From an uncultured cyanobacterium (GTDB lineage Bacteria; Cyanobacteriota; Cyanobacteriia; Cyanobacteriales; Cyanobacteriaceae), in assembly GCA_963710605.1 (NCBI GenBank), contig CAVQBA010000006.1, positions 882,440-946,439 on the forward strand: 64,000 nucleotides of DNA, written 5' to 3'. Below the pieces are notes generated by a model. The model saw nothing but the letters and a program-made list of their open reading frames with translations. It was not told the DNA's origin and did not search any database. The first letter of the stretch is position 1. Each line of letters opens with the position of its first letter. The position numbers and the translations under genes are program-made. This document shows positions 53,781 through 64,000 of this stretch, one piece after another.

Positions 53781-54073
53781 GATGATGAAAAAGGTTTGAG
53801 GTTTGAGTTTTTATGTGTTGATTTTCTTAATTAAGTTAGTTAGTTAGAATTGTGATTTTTTCTTCTTTAAGACTTACATTTTAATGTCAGATTCAATAGC
53901 TTTGCACTATCGTAGTATTGTAGCGATCGAATCAGCTAAAATTACTCTTGCCAACTTTTTTCTTCAACAAATATGCTAGAGTTGTATCAAGATTGTCTCA
54001 TTGACACTCCCAAACTGCGGAGCAGTGGGATTCTTCTTTCAACCAGTAAACTTAATCAGCTTTGTTTCCAATT

Positions 54074-54922
54074 CTAATCAGAGGTTCTTCTGTCTAGAAG
54101 CGTTACACCAAATGAAGGTGAGGTTTCGGTATGCCCTACCGTACCTTTAGCTAAGATATTCAGCGACGCATTGAAATCTCTACACAAACTCACACCACAA
54201 CTACAAGTATGAGTTCTTGTACTCAAAGACTTTTTGACTCTTTTCCCACAGTTGGAGCAGTCTTGAGAGGTAAAAGCTGGGTTAACTCGTACTATTTCAC
54301 GATTAAATACTTTACCAAAATATTCAAGCCACTCTCCAAACAGACTCCAACTAGCATCGCTGATGCTTTTTGCTAAGTTGTGGTTTTTGACCAAGTTGTG
54401 CACACTGAGGTTTTCTAACACTATCACATCATTGGATGTGCATAACGCCCTTGCAGTCTTGACCACAAAGTCTTTACGTCTTCTAGAAACCGTTAAATGC
54501 TGTCTTGCTAGCCTGTTTATCGCTTTGCGTCTATTAGAGCTACCTTTTTTCTTTCGACTAATTTTTTTTTGTAGCTTTTTTAATTTATGTTCGGCTTTTC
54601 TTAGATGTCGAGGATTTTCTACTTTTTGATTGAGGGAATCAGTGTAGAAAAAAGCTAACCCTAAATCCAAACCCACTTTGTTACCTGTAGAAGTAGAGTC
54701 TTCTACTCTTTCGCATTTGATGCAAAATTGGCAATAGTGTCCATCCGCTCGCTTAACGAGTCTCACTCTTTTGATGTCGGTCTTAGAAGCGAACTGAATA
54801 TCGCGACTCCCAACTAACTTCAGAGTTCCAATCCCTGTCTTGTCGGTAAAGGTGATGTATTTACGACAATCAGACAACTTCCATCCACTGGTTTTGTACT
54901 CGACACTTCTTGTCTTTTTCTT
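54074..54922 (-). CDS. tnpB: TnpB RNA-guided endonuclease, exon 2
   Basis: KKKTRSVEYKTSGW, RuvC motifs VGLDLGL, VLENL and RDFNAS, zinc finger CSNC..CSC. Confidence 0.93.
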   Translation of the reverse strand, partial: KKKTRSVEYKTSGWKLSDCRKYITFTDKTGIGTLKLVGSRDIQFASKTDIKRVRLVKRADGHYCQFCIKCERVEDSTSTGNKVGLDLGLAFFYTDSLNQKVENPRHLRKAEHKLKKLQKKISRKKKGSSNRRKAINRLARQHLTVSRRRKDFVVKTARALCTSNDVIVLENLSVHNLVKNHNLAKSISDASWSLFGEWLEYFGKVFNREIVRVNPAFTSQDCSNCGKRVKKSLSTRTHTCSCGVSLCRDFNASLNILAKGTVGHTETSPSFGVTLLDRRTSD

Positions 54923-57340
54923 GTCGAGTAGAGAGACGTATGTTGCCATACCCTCCCCCTCACAGAACCGTACTTGACAATTTCTCATCATACGGCTCTT
55001 AATCATGCCTTGGGTAAATGGTGGTTTTTGTGACACGATTTGTGTATATGTATTAAGTTTGATTCTTTGTCCGTACCTCCATTTTTGATTGGAATTATGT
55101 GGTGGGTTTCCCATCCCATGCCATTGATTAGGGTGTCACTACATACTGGACATTTCCATTTCTGGTTTTGGGCAACATTGTAGAGTTTAGAGCCTTTGGC
55201 GAATCTTGTTCTACATTCTTTGTCGTTCCTTTTTGTCCAGTATTCTTGTAAATCAGGGTTATCTGGTGATGCTCCTTGTTTCACTTTTATGTGCCGAGTG
55301 ATGGGGATTGTGGCTGTGCGGAAGATATTCAAGTTTTGTGGTTTTCCCTCTCTGCTTAATATCTTGGTAAAAAATACCCAATGGTCGTTTTTAACTCGAC
55401 CAAAGTATCTATACCTTACCCATTTGGCTTTTCTACCGTGATGTTTCCTCTTTGACCATTTGTATAATAACTGAACTATTCTATGGTCGAAATATGCAAA
55501 GATTTCCTTTGCTACGGAATGTTGGTAGTAGTTCCCCCATCCTCTTAGAATTGGATTAAGATGTCTAATGACTCCTTCGGCTTCTATCCCTGGGTTCTTT
55601 CTTAACCATTCTTTGATTTCTCTTATTTTGGCTAGTACTTTTCCCTTGGCTGGTTTAATGAGACATTTGCCTTTGTAAGTTCTTATATTGAATCCTAAAA
55701 AGTCAAATCCGTCTTTAACTTGAACTATTTTTGTTTTGTCCTTGTTTAGAACTAATCCCCTTTGAGAAAGCCAGTTTTTAATTATAGGTATAACTTCTTC
55801 AATATCTTCCTGACTTTGGCTGGTGACTATAAAGTCATCTGCGTATCTAATCAGGCTGTACTTTGGAAAGGTCATTTTCCTAACCCTTTTGATTCTTTTG
55901 CCTTTGTAACCTTTTTCGTTAGACTCGTATATTCTCTCAATTTTATACTCCGAGAGGTGTTTTTCTAAACCATCTAAGGCTATGTTGGCAAGTAACGGTG
56001 AAATGACTCCACCTTGGGGTGTTCCAGTTTTAGTTTTAATGAAGTTTCCCTGTTCTACGTAACCTGCTTTCAACCATTGTTTGATTAGTTCTCTTCCAGG
56101 AAAATTTTTTATTTTCCGTAGAATAAACTTATGGTCAATGTTGTCAAAAGCTCCCTTGATGTCGGCATCTAGAACCCACTTATCTTTCCCGTGTCCATTC
56201 AATCGATACCAAATTTGTTCTATTGCATCTTGGCATCTTCTTCCTGGTCGGAATCCATAAGAATTACTCTCGAATTGGGCTTCCCCTACTGGTTCTAAAG
56301 CATTTTTTACAATTGCTTGCATTGCTCTATCTTTAATGGTTGGTATCCCTAATGGTCTTTTCTTTCCGTTAGCTTTTGGGATATATAGTCTCTTGGTTGG
56401 TTTAACCTTCCAAGGTGTATATTCCTTGAGTTCTTCACAGAGTTTTTCTCTTGCGAGAGAAGTCAATGCTTTCCTTGTATCAATTCCAGCAGTCTTTTTT
56501 CCCGCATTGTCCTGTGTAACCTTTCTTACCGACTCAAGTAAGTTACTCTGACTTCTCATCATTAGCTTTGTTAAGCTTCTGACTTTATTCCAATCTTTTT
56601 CCTTGGTCGCACGATATATTCTATGTCTTAAGTTTTTTACCTTCTTATAGGTTTCAATCCAGTCAATCATAGACCAGTTAATTCTATCTTTCTTGGTTTT
56701 TAGCTCCGATGTCATTCTGACTCTATCTTTCACTATCTTTTGACTCTTACATTGAATTACTATCGTGATGATTTGTTTCGGAAGTTAGCTCGGTTTCCCT
56801 TAGTGAATGACACTATCTACCCACTTATATCAATATCTGATTTTCATGTTACCTTTCGGTTGGTAGCATTCGCTTTTTCCAACATCCCTTACCCTCTAAA
56901 TAATTCCGTCTCCCTTGCGTTCGACCTACTCAATAGTTATTGAGAATTTATAGGGTTTTCCGTGTTCCGCATCTTTATAGATTCATCTCTTTTAGGTTTC
57001 ATCTATTCTCCGACGAGCTTCTGTTCTATCGGTGAGGGCAAAATTCAAATTCCCCACCCTACTCGTTTACCTTTTGGTTCAAGCGTGTTAGCCTATTTCG
57101 CTTGTTATTCCTGACGAAGTTTTGTAGATGATTCACTTGCGTTAACCATGAGAGATTTTCCCTTGCTCCCTTAACCAGTTTTAGGCTACCAGCGTGGGCT
57201 ACTTTAGTGACTTGCATTCCAATGTATTCATTACTTACTAACATCGTAGTCGGAGTCAAGGACTCTTTTACTTGGGAATAACTCGATAGAATAAGTTAGG
57301 CATTTCTGCCACTATGTGAGATGCGACTTTCACGTCGCAC
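54923..57340 (-). mobile_element. Group II intron (2418 nt), probably subgroup IIB
   Basis: 5' end GTGCG at 57340. Domain V GAGCCGTATGATGAGAAATTGTCAAGTACGGTTC, domain VI, and 3' end ...CTACTCGAC at 54923. Removal rejoins tnpB in frame. Confidence 0.95.
55003..56733 (-). CDS. ltrA: Group II intron reverse transcriptase/maturase with HNH endonuclease
   Basis: RPLGIPTIKDR, SYGFRPGR, DADIKGAFDNI, GTPQGGVISPLLANI, RYADDF, FDFLGF, maturase LNPILRGWGNYY, C-terminal CPVC..HHI..GG.D..NL..H..CH. Confidence 0.96.
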   Translation of the reverse strand: MKDRVRMTSELKTKKDRINWSMIDWIETYKKVKNLRHRIYRATKEKDWNKVRSLTKLMMRSQSNLLESVRKVTQDNAGKKTAGIDTRKALTSLAREKLCEELKEYTPWKVKPTKRLYIPKANGKKRPLGIPTIKDRAMQAIVKNALEPVGEAQFESNSYGFRPGRRCQDAIEQIWYRLNGHGKDKWVLDADIKGAFDNIDHKFILRKIKNFPGRELIKQWLKAGYVEQGNFIKTKTGTPQGGVISPLLANIALDGLEKHLSEYKIERIYESNEKGYKGKRIKRVRKMTFPKYSLIRYADDFIVTSQSQEDIEEVIPIIKNWLSQRGLVLNKDKTKIVQVKDGFDFLGFNIRTYKGKCLIKPAKGKVLAKIREIKEWLRKNPGIEAEGVIRHLNPILRGWGNYYQHSVAKEIFAYFDHRIVQLLYKWSKRKHHGRKAKWVRYRYFGRVKNDHWVFFTKILSREGKPQNLNIFRTATIPITRHIKVKQGASPDNPDLQEYWTKRNDKECRTRFAKGSKLYNVAQNQKWKCPVCSDTLINGMGWETHHIIPIKNGGTDKESNLIHIHKSCHKNHHLPKA

Positions 57341-57655
57341 GAACTTTGGAAATCCTTTTTTGCCCGACAATTGCTTTTTACAATTATCGTAAAAACGACT
57401 AATAGCAAACCAAGCACGTTCTGCACTAGACTGCCTTGCCATAGAATTCAATTTATGGACGAAAGAGAATTCTGGGTTGTCGGACAATACCTTGGTGTAC
57501 TTATTAAGAGCAAAACTATTTATTTTGTCCTCTCTTTTAGCATCCAACCAATATCTCAGGCATTTATTTCGTATGAATTGCCCAATCCGTATTGCTTCGT
57601 CAATACTTGCTAGTTTAGCTTGACTGGCTTTAATTTTGTACTCGTAAACTAGCAT
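57341..57655 (-). CDS. tnpB: TnpB exon 1 (105 codons)
   Basis: MLVYEYKIK..IDEAIR..QFIRNKCLRYW..LNSMARQSSAERAW..KKGFPKF, ending exactly at the intron GTGCG. Confidence 0.93.
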
Positions 57656-57711
57656 CTGTTCCCCCTCCTTTTAAGTGTTATAGTTTTATAGTATAGTATC
57701 TCAATAGACAA

Positions 57712-58122
57712 GTGACAACTACTAACTACAGAAAAAATAGAAGAGGAACTTTTAGTCTCACTGTACACATTATATTCGTGACAAAATACCGAAAAAAAAT
57801 TTTAACTGATGAAATGCTCAATTCATTAGAAGATTACTTTACAGTTATTTTAGGTAAGTGGAATAGTTTTTGTTTGGAGTTTAATGGCGAATTAGACCAC
57901 GTTCACTTGTTAATCAATTACAGCCCAGACAAAAGACTGAGTGACTTGATTGGTAATTTAAAATCGAGCAGTTGCAAGAACCTCTGGCGTGATTATCCCT
58001 CTTTAACAGATACTTATGCGAAAAAAGTTTTATGGACTCCTAGTTACTTCGTCGCTAGTTGTGGTGGCGTTACTATCGAACAATTAAGGCAGTACGTTCA
58101 AAATCAAAAACGCCCCGAATAG
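57712..58122 (+). CDS. tnpA: IS200/IS605 Y1 HUH transposase
   Basis: HIIFVTKYRK, DHVHLL (HUH), LWTPSYF, helix with the catalytic Tyr in RQYVQNQ. Confidence 0.96.
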   Translation: MTTTNYRKNRRGTFSLTVHIIFVTKYRKKILTDEMLNSLEDYFTVILGKWNSFCLEFNGELDHVHLLINYSPDKRLSDLIGNLKSSSCKNLWRDYPSLTDTYAKKVLWTPSYFVASCGGVTIEQLRQYVQNQKRPE

Positions 58123-58324
58123 GGCTTATATCCCAATCGCCAAAGGCGAGGGTTTTACGCCCTCATTAGATAACGATTACGTACCTTGTAACGACGCTCA
58201 AGAGAATAGTAACGATACTACTGTATTTAAAGCTTTAAACGACGAGAGCAACACAGATAACATTATTTATATCGGTAATTATACCGTATGGGGTACTAAA
58301 GTTAAGACAGGTTCACGTGTCGGC

Positions 58325-58466
58325 ATGAGCTTTACACCTCCTAGTCAAGATTTAGTTAATCTACTAGAAATTAAAAGAGTACACAAAATTACCTCGGCGA
58401 GTAATGTGTCTTTTGCCAGTAATTCAAGAGGACGTATTGCAAATTGGTCTAAAAAGTATCTTGGAC
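58325..58466 (+). pseudogene. Possible 5' part of a gene truncated by the second IS right end
   Basis: ATG-initiated frame MSFTPPSQDL..WSKKYLG runs directly into the IS terminus at 58467. No family recognised. Confidence 0.3.
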
Positions 58467-58504
58467 TTGACACTCCTCTACCTGAAGGTAAGAGGATTCT
58501 TGGT

Positions 58505-59607
58505 TCATTGAGTCGTCTTACCTTGACAGGTGTTTCCACCAACCAAAATAGAGGACAATTCTCCCCAAGCGTTTAAATCTAAATTTTCAGATTTACTTCC
58601 CCAATGCCCTTGGGTAGCTTTTTTTAAAATATTCAATGATGCGTTGGTGTCCCGATCAGCTATATAACCACAACTACACAGGTGAGTTCTAGTAGATAGA
58701 CTTTTCTTGACTCGTTGACCACAGTTGAAACAATCCTGTGAGGTATAAGCTGGATTAACAGCTATGGTTAGCTTTCGATATTTCAGACCAAAATACTCCA
58801 ACCATTTGCGAAACTGACTCCAACTGGCATCATTAATACTTTTAGATAACTTTTTATTTCTAACTAGATTTTTGACTCTTAAATCTTCGTAGGCTATCAA
58901 GTCGTTTGACTGAACTAAACGCAGTGCGGTTTTCTTCCCGAACTCCTCACGTTGCCTACTTACTTTTAAATGTGCTTTACTATAACGTTTTCTAGCTTTT
59001 AAATAGTTGTTACTAACTGGTTTCCCTTTTTTTAATTTTCTTGACTTCCATCGGTTAAGTTTATTTAATCTTGGTTCGGTTTTGCGATAAAATTTAGGGT
59101 TTTGAACAAAATTACCATTGCTATCTGCATAAAAATATCGTATCCCCATATCTAACCCAATCATTTTCTTTGTTTGAGGTAGTTCTGGGGTTATATCTCT
59201 TACGTCTAGCTTCAAGCAAAACTGAGAATAATAGCCGTCGCTTCTCCTAACAATACGGACTCTTTGTATTTGGAATTCTTGGAAATAAAATAAATCTCTC
59301 GAACCAATTAACTTTAGAGTACCGATATTGTTACCGTCTGTGAAGGTTATTCTTTTGTTGTCTCTATCTAACTTCCATCCTGACTTTTTCAACTCGATAC
59401 TTCGTGTTCGCTTAGAAAACTGAGGATAACCCGCTTGGTGCGCGTTCCCTTGCGCCTGTCGGCGGCGCGGGGTCGCATCCGCTTCTTCCCTTTTATGTCT
59501 TTTTTACAATTATCATAAAATTTGGCAATTGCCGACCATGCTCTTTCTCCAGCTTGTTGACACGCTGTTGAATTTAATTGTTTGACAAAAGAAAACTCTT
59601 TTCTCAA
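58505..59607 (-). pseudogene. tnpB: tnpB paralog frameshifted by a 50-nt insertion and 5'-truncated
   Basis: LRKEFSFVKQLNSTACQQAGERAW..KGKK[insert]GYPQFSKRTRSIELKKSGW..IGLDMG..AYEDL..CFNC..DRDTNAS. Confidence 0.88.
59433..59482. mobile_element. 50-nt GC-rich structured insertion element, copy 2
   Basis: Removing it restores GGG AAG AAG GGT TAT CCT (GKKGYP) in frame. Homologous to 20239-20288. Confidence 0.85.
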
Positions 59608-62600
59608 ACAATTAAATTCAACAGCGTGTCAACAAGCTGGAGAAAGACATGGTCGGCAATTGCCAAATTTTATGATAATTGTAAAAAAGACATAAAAGGA
59701 AGACAATGGAAATACACAGCCACCGACACAAACACGAAGTATCGAGTTGAAAAAGTCAGGATGGAAGTTAGATAGAGACAACAAAAGAATAACCTTCACA
59801 GACAGTAACAATATCGGTCACTCTAAAGTTAATTGGTTCGAGATTTATTTTATTCCAAGAATTCCAAATACAAAATTCGTAGGAGAAGCGACGGCTATTA
59901 TTCTCAGTTTTGCTTGAAGCTAGACGTAAGAGATATAACCCCAGAACTACCTCAAACAAAGAAAATGATTGGGTTAGATATGGGGATACGATATTTTTAT
60001 GCAGATAGCAATGGTAATTTTGTTCAAAACCCTAAATTTTATCGCAAAACCGAACCAAGATTAAATAAACTTAACCAATGGAAAATGGAGAAATTTAAAA
60101 AAAGGGAAACCAGTTAGTAACAATCTATTTAAAAGCTGATAGTAAAGCACGTTAAAAGTAAGTAGGCAACGTGAGGAGTTCGGGAAGAAAACCGCACTGC
60201 GTTTAGTTCAGTCAAACGACTTGATAGCCTACGAAGATTTAAGAGTCAAAAATCTAGTTAGAAATAAAAAGTTATCTAAAAGTATTAATGATGCCAGTTG
60301 GAGTCAGTTGCAAATGGTTGGAGTATTTTGGTCTGAAAGATAACTGTAATCCAGCTTATACCTCACAGGATTGTTTCAACTGTGGTCAACATCAAGAAAA
60401 GTCTATCTACTAGAACTCACCTGTGTAGTTGTGGTTATATAGCTGAAAATGGGACACCAACGCATCATTGAATATTTTAAAAAAAAGCTACCAAGGGCAT
60501 TGGGGAAGTAAATCTGAAAATTTAGATTTAAACGCTTGGGGAGAATTATATTATTTTGGTTGGTGTAGAAGTTGAGGAAACTCGAATGAAGCGAGAATCC
60601 TCTTACCTTCAGGTAGAGGAGTGTCAAGTCCAAGATACTTTTTAGACCAATTTGCAATACGTCCTCTTGAATTACTGGCAAAAGACACATTACTCGCCAA
60701 AGTAATTTTTTGTGTACTCTTTTAATTTCTAGTAGATTAACTAAATCTTGACTAGGAGGTGTAAAGCTCATGCCGACACGTGAACCTGTCTTGCGTATAA
60801 TTACCGATATAAATAATGTTATCTGCGTCGTTTAAAGCTTTAAATACAGTAGTATCGTTACTATTTCTGTTCTTGAGCGTCGTTACAAGGTACGTAATCG
60901 TTATCTAATGAGGGCGTAAAAACCCTCGCCTTTGGCAATTCGACGAGCCTCTATTCGGGGCGTTTTTGATGTTGAACGTACTGCGATAGTAACGCCACCA
61001 CAACTAGCGACGAAGTAACTGAGGTCCGTAAAACTTTTTTCGCATAAGTATGTTTAAAGAGGGATAATCACAAGGATGTTGCAACTGCTCGATTTTAAAT
61101 TACCAATCAAGTCACTCAGTCTTTTGTCTGGGCTGTGATTGATTAACAAGGTGAACGTGTGCTAATTCGCCATTAAACTCCAAACAAAAACTATTCCACT
61201 TACCTAAAATAACTGTAAAGTAATCTTCTAATGAATGACATTTCATCAGTTAAAATTTTTTTTCGGTATTTTGTCACGAATATAATGTGTACCTGCTCTT
61301 CTATTTTTTCTGTAGTTAGTAGTTGTCACTTGTATTGAGATACTATACTATAAAAAGTCTCAACGAGAGGAAGGGGGAACAGAAGTACTCGTTCCAAAAT
61401 TCAAAAATGCGGAGAAGGATGAAGCTGAACTCGCAAGTATTTAGCAAAAGCAATACATAATTTGAAATGCTAGGTTCAGATACTCAAAAGAAAGACAACA
61501 AAAAATAAATAGGTTTTTACTCTAATAAGACTACACGACAACACGAGATTCTCTTCATCATAAATTGAATTCTATGGGCAAGGCATCTGTCGTGCAGAAC
61601 GTGCTTGGTTTGCTATTAGTCGTTTTTACGATAATTGTAAAAAGCAATTGTCGGGCAAAATGGATTTCCAAAGTTGGTGCGACGTGAAAGTCGCATCTCA
61701 CATAGTGGCAGAAATGCCTAGACTTATTCTATCGAGTTATTCCCAAGTAAAAGAGTCCTTGACTCCGACTACGATGTTAGTAAGTAATCAATACATTTGA
61801 ATGCAAGTCACTGAGAGCGCGCTGGTAGCTTATTGAACTCATTAGAAACAAGGGAAATTTCTCATGGTTAACGCAAGTGAATCATCTACAAAACTTCGTC
61901 AGGAATAACAAGCGAAATAGGCTAACACGCTTGAACCAAAAGGTAAACGAGTAGGTGGGGAATTTGAATTTTGCCTCACCCCGAACTTCGTCGGAGAATA
62001 GATGAAACCTAAAAGAGATGAATCTATAAAGATGCGGAACACGGAAAACCCTATAAATTCTCAATAACTATTGAGTAGGTCAAACGCAAGGGAGACGGAA
62101 TTATTTAGAGGGTAAGGGATGTTGAATGCTACAAACCGAAAGGTAACATGAAAATCAGATATTGATATAAGTGGGTAGTACATGTCATTCACTAAGGGAA
62201 ACCAAGAGCTTCCAAAACGAATCATCACGATAGTAAATTCAATGTAAGAGTCAAAAGATAGTGAAAGATAGAGTCAGAATGACATCGAAGCTAAAAACCA
62301 AGAAAGATAGAATTAACTGGTCTATGATTGACTGGATTGAAACCTATAAGAAGGTAAAAAACTTAAGACATAGAATATCGTGCGACCAAGGAAAAAGATT
62401 GGAATAAAGTCAGAAGCTTAACAAAGCTAATGATGAGAAGTCAGACTTCCTTGAGTCGGTAAGAAAGGTTACACAGGACAATGCGGGAAAAAGACTGCTG
62501 GAATTGATACAAGGAAAACATTGACTTCTCTCGCAAGAGAAAAACTCTGTGAAGCTCAAGGAATATACACCTTGAAGGTTAAACCAACCAAGAGACTATA

Positions 62601-64000
62601 TATCCCAAAAGCTAACGGAAAGAAAAAGCAGTTATCTACAACCATTAAAGATAGAGCAATGCAAGCAATTGTAAAGAAGGAGAACTGATAGGGGAAGCCC
62701 AATTGGAGGTTGAATTCTTATGGATTCCGACCAGGAAGAAGATGCCCAAGATGCAATAGAACAAATTTGGTATCGATTGAATGGACACGGGAAAGATAAG
62801 TGGGTTCTAGATGCCGACATCAAGGGAGCTTTTGACAACATTGACCATAAGTTTATTCTACGGAAAATAAAAAATTTTCCTGGAAGAGAACTAATCAAAC
62901 AATGAGACGTTACGTAGAACAGGAATTTTCATTAAAACTAAAACTGGAACACCCCAAGGTGGAGTCATTTCACCGTTACTTGCCAACATAGCCTTAGATG
63001 GTTTAAAACACCTCTCGGAGTATAAAATTGAGAGAATATACGAGTCTAACGAAAAAGGTTACAAAGGCAAAAGAATCAAAAGGGTTAGGAAAATGACCTT
63101 TCCAAAGTACAGCCTGATTAGATACGCAGATAGCTTTATAGTCACCAGCCAAAGTCAGAGATTGAAGAAGTTATACCTATAATTAAAAACTGGCTTTCTC
63201 AAAGGGGATTAGTTCTAAACAAGGACAAAACAAAAATAGTTCAAGTTAAAGACGGATTTGACTTTTTATAAAACTACAAAAGGCAAATGTCTCATTAAAA
63301 CCGGCAAAAGAGCCCTCAAAATCAGAGGAATTGAAGAAATTAAGAAAAAATTCAGGGATGAAAGCCGAAGGAGTCATTAGACATCTTAATCCAATTCTAA
63401 GAGGATGGGGGAACTACTACCAACATTCGTAGCAAAGGAAATCTTTGCATATTTCGACCATAGAATAGTTCAGTTATTATACAAATGGTCAAAGAGGAAA
63501 CATCACGGTAAAAAGCCAAATGGGTAAGGTATAGATACTTTGGTCGAGTTAAAAACAACCGTGGTTATTTTTTACCAAGATATTAAGCAGAGAGGGAAAA
63601 CCACAAAACTTGAATATCCGCACAGCCACAATCCCCATCACTCGGCACGTGAGAACAAGGAGCATCACCAGATAACCTAGATTACAAGAATACTGGACAA
63701 AAAGGAACGACAAAGAATGTAGAACAAGATTCAGCCAAGAAGGTAAACTCTACAGAGATGTTGCCCAAAACCAGAAATGGAAATGTCCAGTATGTAGTGA
63801 CACCCTAACCAATGGCATGGGATGGGAAACCCACCACATAATTCCAATCAAAATGGAGGTACGGACAAAGAATCAAACTTAATACATATACACAAATCGT
63901 GTCACAAAAACCACCATTTACCCAAGGCATGATTAAGAGCCGTATGATGAGAAATTGTCAAGTACGGTTCTGTGAGGGGGAGGGTATGGCAACATACGTC
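59597..64000. repeat. Error-rich inverted copy of 54935-59592 (probable fold-back artefact)
   Basis: Colinear reverse complement of tnpB2, spacer, tnpA, tnpB exon 1 and the intron. It is 4404 nt against 4658 nt for the original, and every ORF is broken by short indels. Confidence 0.93.

Follow-up and report, generated by a model that had tools for sequence, protein, structure and literature searches.

A chloroplast-like group II intron inside the tnpB gene of an IS605-type transposon in an uncultured cyanobacterium

The window analyzed here is a 64 kb stretch of DNA, the last 64 kb of contig C6, from the assembly of an uncultured cyanobacterium (3.93 Mb in 7 contigs, 85% complete). It contains an IS605-type transposon in which tnpB, the gene for the RNA-guided nuclease TnpB, is split by a group II intron that encodes a reverse transcriptase (RT)/maturase/HNH protein. 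We consider it probable that this is a mobile IIB intron at a cognate and recurrent homing site in the tnpB of an otherwise intact element, and that TnpB is made only from spliced RNA; judged from its sequence, the composite is real and probably splicing-competent. The locus, intact and base-exact, stacks two selfish elements: a peel-and-paste transposon and, within its RNA-guided nuclease gene, a retro-intron. Among homologues of these genes, the named ones are from Pleurocapsales-type and other cyanobacteria. The G+C content of the intron is 38.6% and that of the rest of the transposon 38.4%, with the surrounding DNA about 5 points lower (33.3% in window positions 1-53000).

Intron boundaries and the restored tnpB frame

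The composite and the parts that define the split gene are as follows (window coordinates).

54001..58169, minus strand (the tnpB strand): whole composite, an IS605-type element with a group II intron, 4169 bp; tnpA and tnpB divergent
57341..57655, minus strand: tnpB exon 1, codons 1-105 (open reading frame, computed join and alignment)
54923..57340, minus strand, sense to tnpB: group II intron, IIB/chloroplast-like, 2418 nt (GTGCGA start, RF00029, domain I-III alignment)
55003..56733, minus strand: intron-encoded protein (RT, maturase, HNH endonuclease), 576 aa, no frameshift (Pfam)
54923..55000, minus strand: intron domains V and VI (Rfam RF00029, 62.8 bits, model positions 1-77 of 77)
54074..54922, minus strand: tnpB exon 2, codons 106-387 and stop, with the RuvC and zinc-finger parts (Pfam; ISDra2 TnpB alignment)

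A preliminary description of this DNA had placed an intron within tnpB, and its boundaries proved exact to the base, from the GTGCGA start to the end of the RF00029 match. On the minus strand the 5' junction reads ...CCAAAGTTC/GTGCGACGTG at 57341/57340 (a slash marks the splice junction throughout), where the intron 5' end GTGCGAC fits the group II consensus GUGYG, and the 3' junction reads ...CTACTCGAC/AAGAAAAAG at 54923/54922. The RF00029 model for domains V and VI, with a gathering score of 40, is matched well above that score; the domain V helix is visible in the alignment, as is the 3' end ..CUACUCGAC, and the match stops exactly at the proposed 3' splice site, so the intron is taken to run from 57340 to 54923. 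Domains I-III are alignable with five other cyanobacterial introns. Within 54800-57500 the Rfam matches are to group II models only, and the Rfam D1-D4 intron models gave no match.

The gene for the intron protein is intact, as the preliminary description held; its product carries the Pfam domains RVT_N, RVT_1 (2e-52), GIIM, and HNH, and the YADD motif is present. The closest solved relative is PDB 6ME0 chain C ('Maturase reverse transcriptase'; residues 6-572, E 3.7e-127), which we take to be the Thermosynechococcus elongatus IIB intron ribonucleoprotein (RNP). On the strength of this likeness rather than of a tree, the intron belongs to the chloroplast-like (CL) IIB lineage. The placement also draws on the available part of a study of the T. 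elongatus introns, which describes them as CL/IIB1 (Mohr, Ghanem and Lambowitz, 2010; PMC2882425). The nearest homologue of the intron protein is P0121 (a cluster of 10 members), at 88% identity, and the next is at 65%; P0121, like P0078 and P0331 below, is known as a protein sequence only. For relatives with DNA, protein identity does not exceed 56% in any of the 41 genome-contig loci or the 80 metagenome-contig loci kept, and the best DNA identity among 60 relatives is 64-69%, over parts of the sequence. The contigs obtained from sequencing run X1 (6% of words) were all short and resembled parts of the intron at about 90%, with no informative joint across 54923-57340; the run was uninformative on expression.

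Exon 1 ends ...GGA TTT CCA AAG TTC at codon 105, immediately before the intron. When the exons are joined by their coordinates they form a single open frame of 387 aa, the full TnpB that intron removal had been claimed to restore; the unspliced frame meets a stop after 14 intron codons, giving 119 aa. The junction was aligned with MAFFT to 30 full-length homologues (385-420 aa) from the first 59 non-self matches, and none of the 30 has a gap there, the consensus being GKKG[FY]P[KR]F/KKNSRS[VI]EY. The closest of these TnpB homologues shares 76% identity across 387 aligned columns. Exon 2 matches the Pfam domains OrfB_IS605 (1.4e-25) and Cas12f1-like TNB, the zinc-finger domain (6.9e-18), and aligns with the solved ISDra2 TnpB (8H1J/8EXA; E 1.6e-31) so that the GLDLG, VLENL, RDFNA, and CxxC...CxC columns match. 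The joined protein has the RuvC triad and zinc finger ascribed to it in the preliminary description, the D/E/D residues being those that we take to be catalytic in ISDra2 TnpB.

The tnpB target site and its recurrence

The complementarity between an exon-binding site (EBS1) in the intron and an intron-binding site (IBS1) in the exon, which the preliminary description had proposed as a check, was found in a hairpin loop of domain I.

57039..57046 (intron 295-302), minus strand: EBS1, GAAUUUUG, in the loop of hairpin 283-289/304-310
57341..57348, minus strand: IBS1, CAAAGUUC, the P-K-F codons and last 8 bases of exon 1; pairs with EBS1

The two sites pair over 8 bp, including one G-U, starting from exon position -1, and intron positions 290-303 form a hairpin loop when the first 620 nt are folded without constraints. 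As a control for chance, domain I was subjected to 5000 mononucleotide shuffles, and 198 of these gave a pairing of at least 8 bp from exon position -1. The comparative fit of loop and exon is probably the stronger argument for EBS1: the homologous loop, with a different sequence, matches its own 5' exon in three of the five aligned introns (L011 over 7 bp, L072 over 10 bp, and L075 over 5 bp), and fits it poorly in L071 and L052. Another candidate for EBS1, UUGAAC (intron 259-264, pairing with GUUC/AA), lies in a stretch conserved across the six aligned introns and was discarded for that reason.

Other organisms have related introns, or what remains of them, at this tnpB site. The metagenome protein P0078 begins MATYASLLD/KKNSRSVEY, and its TnpB part is 68% identical to exon 2; in the window, the 3' end of the intron encodes MATYVSLLD directly before exon 2. 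Of 120 short N-terminal TnpB fragments listed, 23 have at most 30 residues after GxxG[FY]P[KRQ][FY], and an intron-like V-R-[RC] tail is present in two of these 23: the window's own protein and P0331, which ends GKKGYPKF/VRCSKLRV. A degenerate junction pattern, searched in 401 genomes of the phylum with the reversed pattern as a control, matched in four genomes (the window's own, G082, G399, and G342), and the reversed control gave one match. In G082, an exon-1 open reading frame ending GYPKF/VRRESRF lies beside a divergent tnpA; after it comes a remnant that matches nt 3-22 (95%) and nt 353-472 (82.5%) of the intron described here, and the rest of the intron and exon 2 are lost. In G399, tnpB exon 1 ends at codon 105 before GTGCGATGTAGAG, and the remaining 1.5 kb of that contig holds neither an intron protein nor a domain V. 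The 11 pattern matches in G342 all come from an unrelated short repeat and were set aside. Among plasmids, a tblastn search with exon 2 plus the intron-encoded prefix returned 19 records, in which the two whose match starts upstream of exon 2 (H29 and H30) are uninterrupted tnpB genes.

These features suggest the following course. An IIB/chloroplast-like intron with an RT-maturase-HNH protein would have retrohomed into its cognate site, the conserved GFPKF/KKK stretch of tnpB. The tnpB pre-mRNA would then be spliced with assistance from the intron protein to give the full 387-aa TnpB, and unspliced RNA would give a 119-aa stump; splicing is expected because the intron lies in sense orientation and its ribozyme core, protein gene, and EBS1 loop are intact. 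Because tnpA, both ends, and the omega-RNA region are still present, the intron could travel with the transposon, both in transposition and when the transposon is restored through TnpB-guided repair. The freed intron RNP could in turn invade intron-less tnpB alleles that bear a target of the CAAAGUUC type. On this sequence basis we infer that the intron may splice in vivo, that either partner may be mobile at present, and that either may benefit; the three mobility routes named in the preliminary description would be conceivable on the same grounds.

The transposon, the contig end, and rival explanations

The transposon around the split gene comprises the following parts.

57712..58122, plus strand: tnpA, Y1 (HUH) transposase, 136 aa, open frame (Pfam Y1_Tnp, 1.2e-35)
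54001..54073, minus strand: right end and 3' part of the presumed omega-RNA scaffold; ends ...GGGAGTGTCAA
58123..58169, minus strand: left end with subterminal hairpin; putative boundary drawn from one relative, L182
57690..57718, minus strand: promoter-like site upstream of tnpB, TTGTCA-17 nt-TATACT (consensus scan 10/12, a pattern match only)

As had been proposed, tnpA is intact. The companion claim that both ends of the element are intact held in part: the right end is fixed by homology, and the left end is plausible. Relatives L152 and L157, from other genomes, align through GGGAGTGTCAAT and then diverge at once, which sets the right-end boundary at 54001, or at 54000 with the T counted; in both relatives tnpB is uninterrupted at codon 105/106. 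A hairpin, TCCCACTGC..GCAGTTTGGGA in a DNA fold, precedes this terminus. We read 54001..54073 as the presumptive 3' omega-RNA scaffold, in which case the flank at and below 54000 would serve as the guide. At the left end, a hairpin CCCTCGCC-TTT-GGCGATTGGG occupies 58152..58132, and the flank TTAT lies at 58173..58170; L182 shares this hairpin with the element and also, 16-18 nt upstream of it, a TTATC motif. The element thus has subterminal hairpins at both ends and a right end just downstream of tnpB, as expected of the IS605 type.

About 300 bp of other sequence separates the left end from a second tnpB of the IS605 family (window 58467-59607, minus strand), which is 55% identical to the first. 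A right-end-like terminus, GAGGAGTGTCAA, ends at 58467; the reading frame is interrupted near 59390, and the center of the fold-back described next truncates the gene in its 5' part.

Window positions 54935-59703 are mirrored at 59484-64000 as a spacerless inverted repeat of 4.4 kb that is centered at about 59593 and continues until the contig stops. The two arms share 90-93% identity, and the 'copy' of the intron at 61677-64000 is 92% identical. The 248 mismatches of the mirrored arm favor no codon position (24/21/23 in the intron ORF), the indels comprise 57 deletion and 23 insertion events, and C<->T differences number 111 vs. 36 for G<->A, a strand bias in the pattern of single-read errors; the longest stop-free frame is 142 residues in this arm vs. 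593 in the left arm. The mirrored arm is very likely an assembly artefact, an unpolished fold-back read at the contig end, and the features annotated in 59.6-64 kb (decayed tnpB, tnpA, and intron) are likely not real sequence. The region 61677-64000 was accordingly rejected as a second copy of the intron, being an arm of a spacerless inverted repeat with error-like differences.

The same fold-back, which ends the contig 4.4 kb further on, invites the suspicion that the nesting of intron and tnpB is itself a chimeric join. This is very improbable, given junctions that are base-exact against both canonical intron ends and the frame of 30 homologues, open frames that are all intact in this arm (unlike those of the mirrored arm), and same-site cases in independent data. 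A more serious rival, although still unlikely, is that the insertion is a dead end, in which the intron no longer splices efficiently in this host, tnpB is effectively knocked out, and the composite is decaying. The element is single-copy, without signs of recent spread, and decay is a common fate elsewhere, as in the same-site cases G082 (a deleted stump without exon 2) and G399 (a short stump); moreover, the protein genes of the transposon-associated introns L184 (same genome) and L062 are broken. Against this, nothing is broken at the present locus, where the 576-aa gene, domains V and VI, the EBS1/IBS1 pairing, both exons, tnpA, and the right end are all in place. It has little likelihood, on the other hand, that the two elements form a maintained partnership, in which an intron lineage is specialized on OMEGA nuclease genes, splicing gates TnpB dosage, and the coupling is selected. 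The GFPKF/K site does recur in tnpB genes that are only 60-68% identical or too diverged for tblastn. Among 19 intron loci fetched from relatives (L052-L070), five have a tnpB match, and each of these introns runs in the direction of tnpB, either inside the gene or directly at its 3' end; in addition, the closest plasmid-borne relative of the intron protein lies inside iscB. Homing introns are, however, expected in conserved multi-copy sequences, insertion into other mobile elements being named as a proliferation strategy of introns in the available part of Mohr, Ghanem and Lambowitz (2010; PMC2882425), and the frequency of decayed copies weighs against selection for the coupling.

The reading preferred here, of a mobile intron at its homing site in a gene expressed through splicing, has several points to answer. 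Transposon and intron are each present once in this assembly, with no sign of recent movement; the best paralogues are 55% and 51% identical for tnpB, 56% for tnpA, and 45% for another intron protein. The search for other copies that the preliminary description suggested thus succeeded for this tnpB site elsewhere among organisms of other genomes and metagenomes, but found no second transposon copy, intron-less or intron-bearing, in this 85%-complete assembly. The empty 16-nt target, with zero or one mismatch, occurs nowhere else in the genome, and the four genome sites with two mismatches are in contexts that are not tnpB-like. Because of the single copy, the lack of an intron-less copy, and the lack of an empty target, the locus gives no indication of recent movement of either partner. 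Intact exons are equally to be expected from a recent insertion that does not splice. The EBS1 pairing on its own is only modestly significant, since shuffled sequences reach it at a rate of about 4%. For EBS2/IBS2 there are only 5-bp candidates, GAAAU and the tentative GGAAU (230-234), and the GAAAU match is probably not EBS2, because its loop is conserved in all six introns. Finally, the plausible left end at 58169 depends on one relative.

Other intron-transposon nestings and comparison with known systems

Introns were also seen at other positions in tnpB. In L067 (G042:C129) the intron splits tnpB at HLKVSRQ/REEF and in L071 (a metagenome contig) at DYYSQ/KKTLPQ, in frame across the junction in both cases. 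L064 (G041) and L052 (G033) carry one intron lineage, with the 5' end GTGCGATTCGTTCAG, inserted in phase 2 after NAA[LV] of the TnpB RuvC-III motif; in L052 a second intron 5' end lies 204 nt inside the first, a twintron-like arrangement, and the metagenome locus L072 has the same exon context as this inner intron. In the window's own genome, an intron with the 5' end GTGCGATTCG (L183, C4:1257356-1260101) starts about 100 nt beyond the end of the aligned part of a tnpB paralogue, still ahead of the stop of that frame.

Transposon ends and the omega-RNA region are occupied as well. Another intron lineage, with the 5' end GTGCGACCTGAACTGGTC (L062 of G015, and L184 at C5:124879-127216 of the window's own genome), starts directly after an IS605-type right-end terminus, GGGAGTGTCA in L062 and GGGAGTATGTCA in L184, that is, at the junction of omega-RNA scaffold and guide. 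The L062 EBS1 loop UGACAUU pairs over 7 bp with the terminus AGUGUCA; L184 has a frameshifted protein gene and a pairing of 4 bp only, and the protein gene of L062 is likewise broken. In L058 (G043:C122), the intron is found 7 nt downstream of a tnpB stop codon, with a right-end-like GAGCGTCAA about 65 nt beyond it, so that it apparently interrupts the region of the omega-RNA scaffold. The protein gene of this intron is intact, and the EBS1 loop AUCUAGU matches the exon of the same locus, GCUAGAU. Elsewhere in the window's own genome, 20 kb of contig C5 (L186, C5:10000-29999) hold five domain V or V-VI sites, four matched by RF00029 and the fifth by both RF00029 and RF04357, together with several partial intron-protein matches.

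The iscB case is on plasmid pOSC7112.02 of Oscillatoria nigro-viridis PCC 7112 (L200, NC_019730.1 98390-107081), where a HEARO (IscB omega) RNA (146 bits) is followed by a 48-aa RRXRR ORF, a group II intron with ltrA, and iscB, the intron being nested in iscB. RefSeq lists this locus as three separate genes, and annotation pipelines list such split genes as separate fragments.

The sites occupied therefore include GFPKF/K (the present locus), SRQ/REEF, YYSQ/KK, and the RuvC-III motif in tnpB, iscB, and the IS605 right-end terminus or omega-RNA region. It is conceivable, if rather doubtful, that cyanobacterial chloroplast-like introns include sub-lineages specialized on OMEGA machinery, with the transposon as vehicle and with the nuclease, and sometimes the guide RNA, dependent on protein-assisted splicing. 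Nested states of this kind are also the raw material from which, it has been proposed, the HNH insert of IscB and Cas9 arose. The association of introns with OMEGA systems in cyanobacteria may be wider than two short printed mentions imply, because further introns occupy four additional sites in tnpB as well as iscB, transposon right ends, and the omega-RNA region. The present locus could serve as a model for TnpB output as a function of splicing, for an intron riding on TnpA- or TnpB-driven spread, and for the choice of 'safe' multi-copy targets by introns.

Among known systems, the solved relative 6ME0 chain C compares at the level of protein sequence only, its host gene being unrelated. The pOSC7112.02 intron is the closest plasmid-borne relative by its protein (55.5%), and it also splits an OMEGA nuclease gene; it differs in that the host is iscB and not tnpB, and in a 5' end that does not read GTGYG, there being no GTG[CT]GA between the RRXRR ORF and ltrA. 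In IStrons, a group I intron is fused with IS605/IS607 genes, according to the available parts of the accounts by Tourasse (2014; PMC4227781) and Zedaveinyte (2023 preprint; PMC10690162). The likeness is that intron and TnpB transposon share one element and that splicing renders the insertion harmless. In IStrons, however, the IS genes lie within a group I ribozyme, of another ribozyme class and mobility mechanism and without an RT, as far as those parts describe them. The nesting is reversed here: no group I ribozyme encloses the IS genes, and a group II intron lies inside one of them, in agreement with the preliminary description.

The closest published parallels are group II introns in IS200/IS605 elements. 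The available part of Mohr, Ghanem and Lambowitz (2010; PMC2882425) describes TeI3 family F4 introns of CL/IIB1 type in the IS200-family element ISEL1 of T. elongatus, where eight introns (TeI4a-h) have ORFs and 17 TeI3 introns, including F4, have none. The present intron resembles F4, as that text describes it, in being a cyanobacterial CL/IIB1-type intron at a conserved site in an IS200/IS605-family element. It differs in encoding an RT-maturase-HNH protein, F4 introns being ORF-less, and in being single-copy vs. three F4 copies in T. elongatus; the site here is a defined tnpB codon, and the comparison with ISEL1 applies at the level of the element. An RT-HNH intron inside an IS605-family element in cyanobacteria (PCC 7107) is mentioned by Kapitonov, Makarova and Koonin (2016; PMC4810608), a composite of the same kind as ours, compared here through that brief mention, which gives no EBS/IBS or frame analysis, and not by insertion site; the cases concerned are from Anabaena and Nostoc. 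A full-text search of the literature returned no paper devoted to introns in tnpB, and the site described here may also be the one in Supplementary Fig. S9 of PMC4810608. The novelty implied in the preliminary description was set too high: as the available text of both papers indicates (PMC2882425; PMC4810608), the presence of group II introns at conserved positions of IS200/IS605 elements has been published before. The present locus is a clean example of a known phenomenon, not a new kind of element, and its value is that of a clean specimen.

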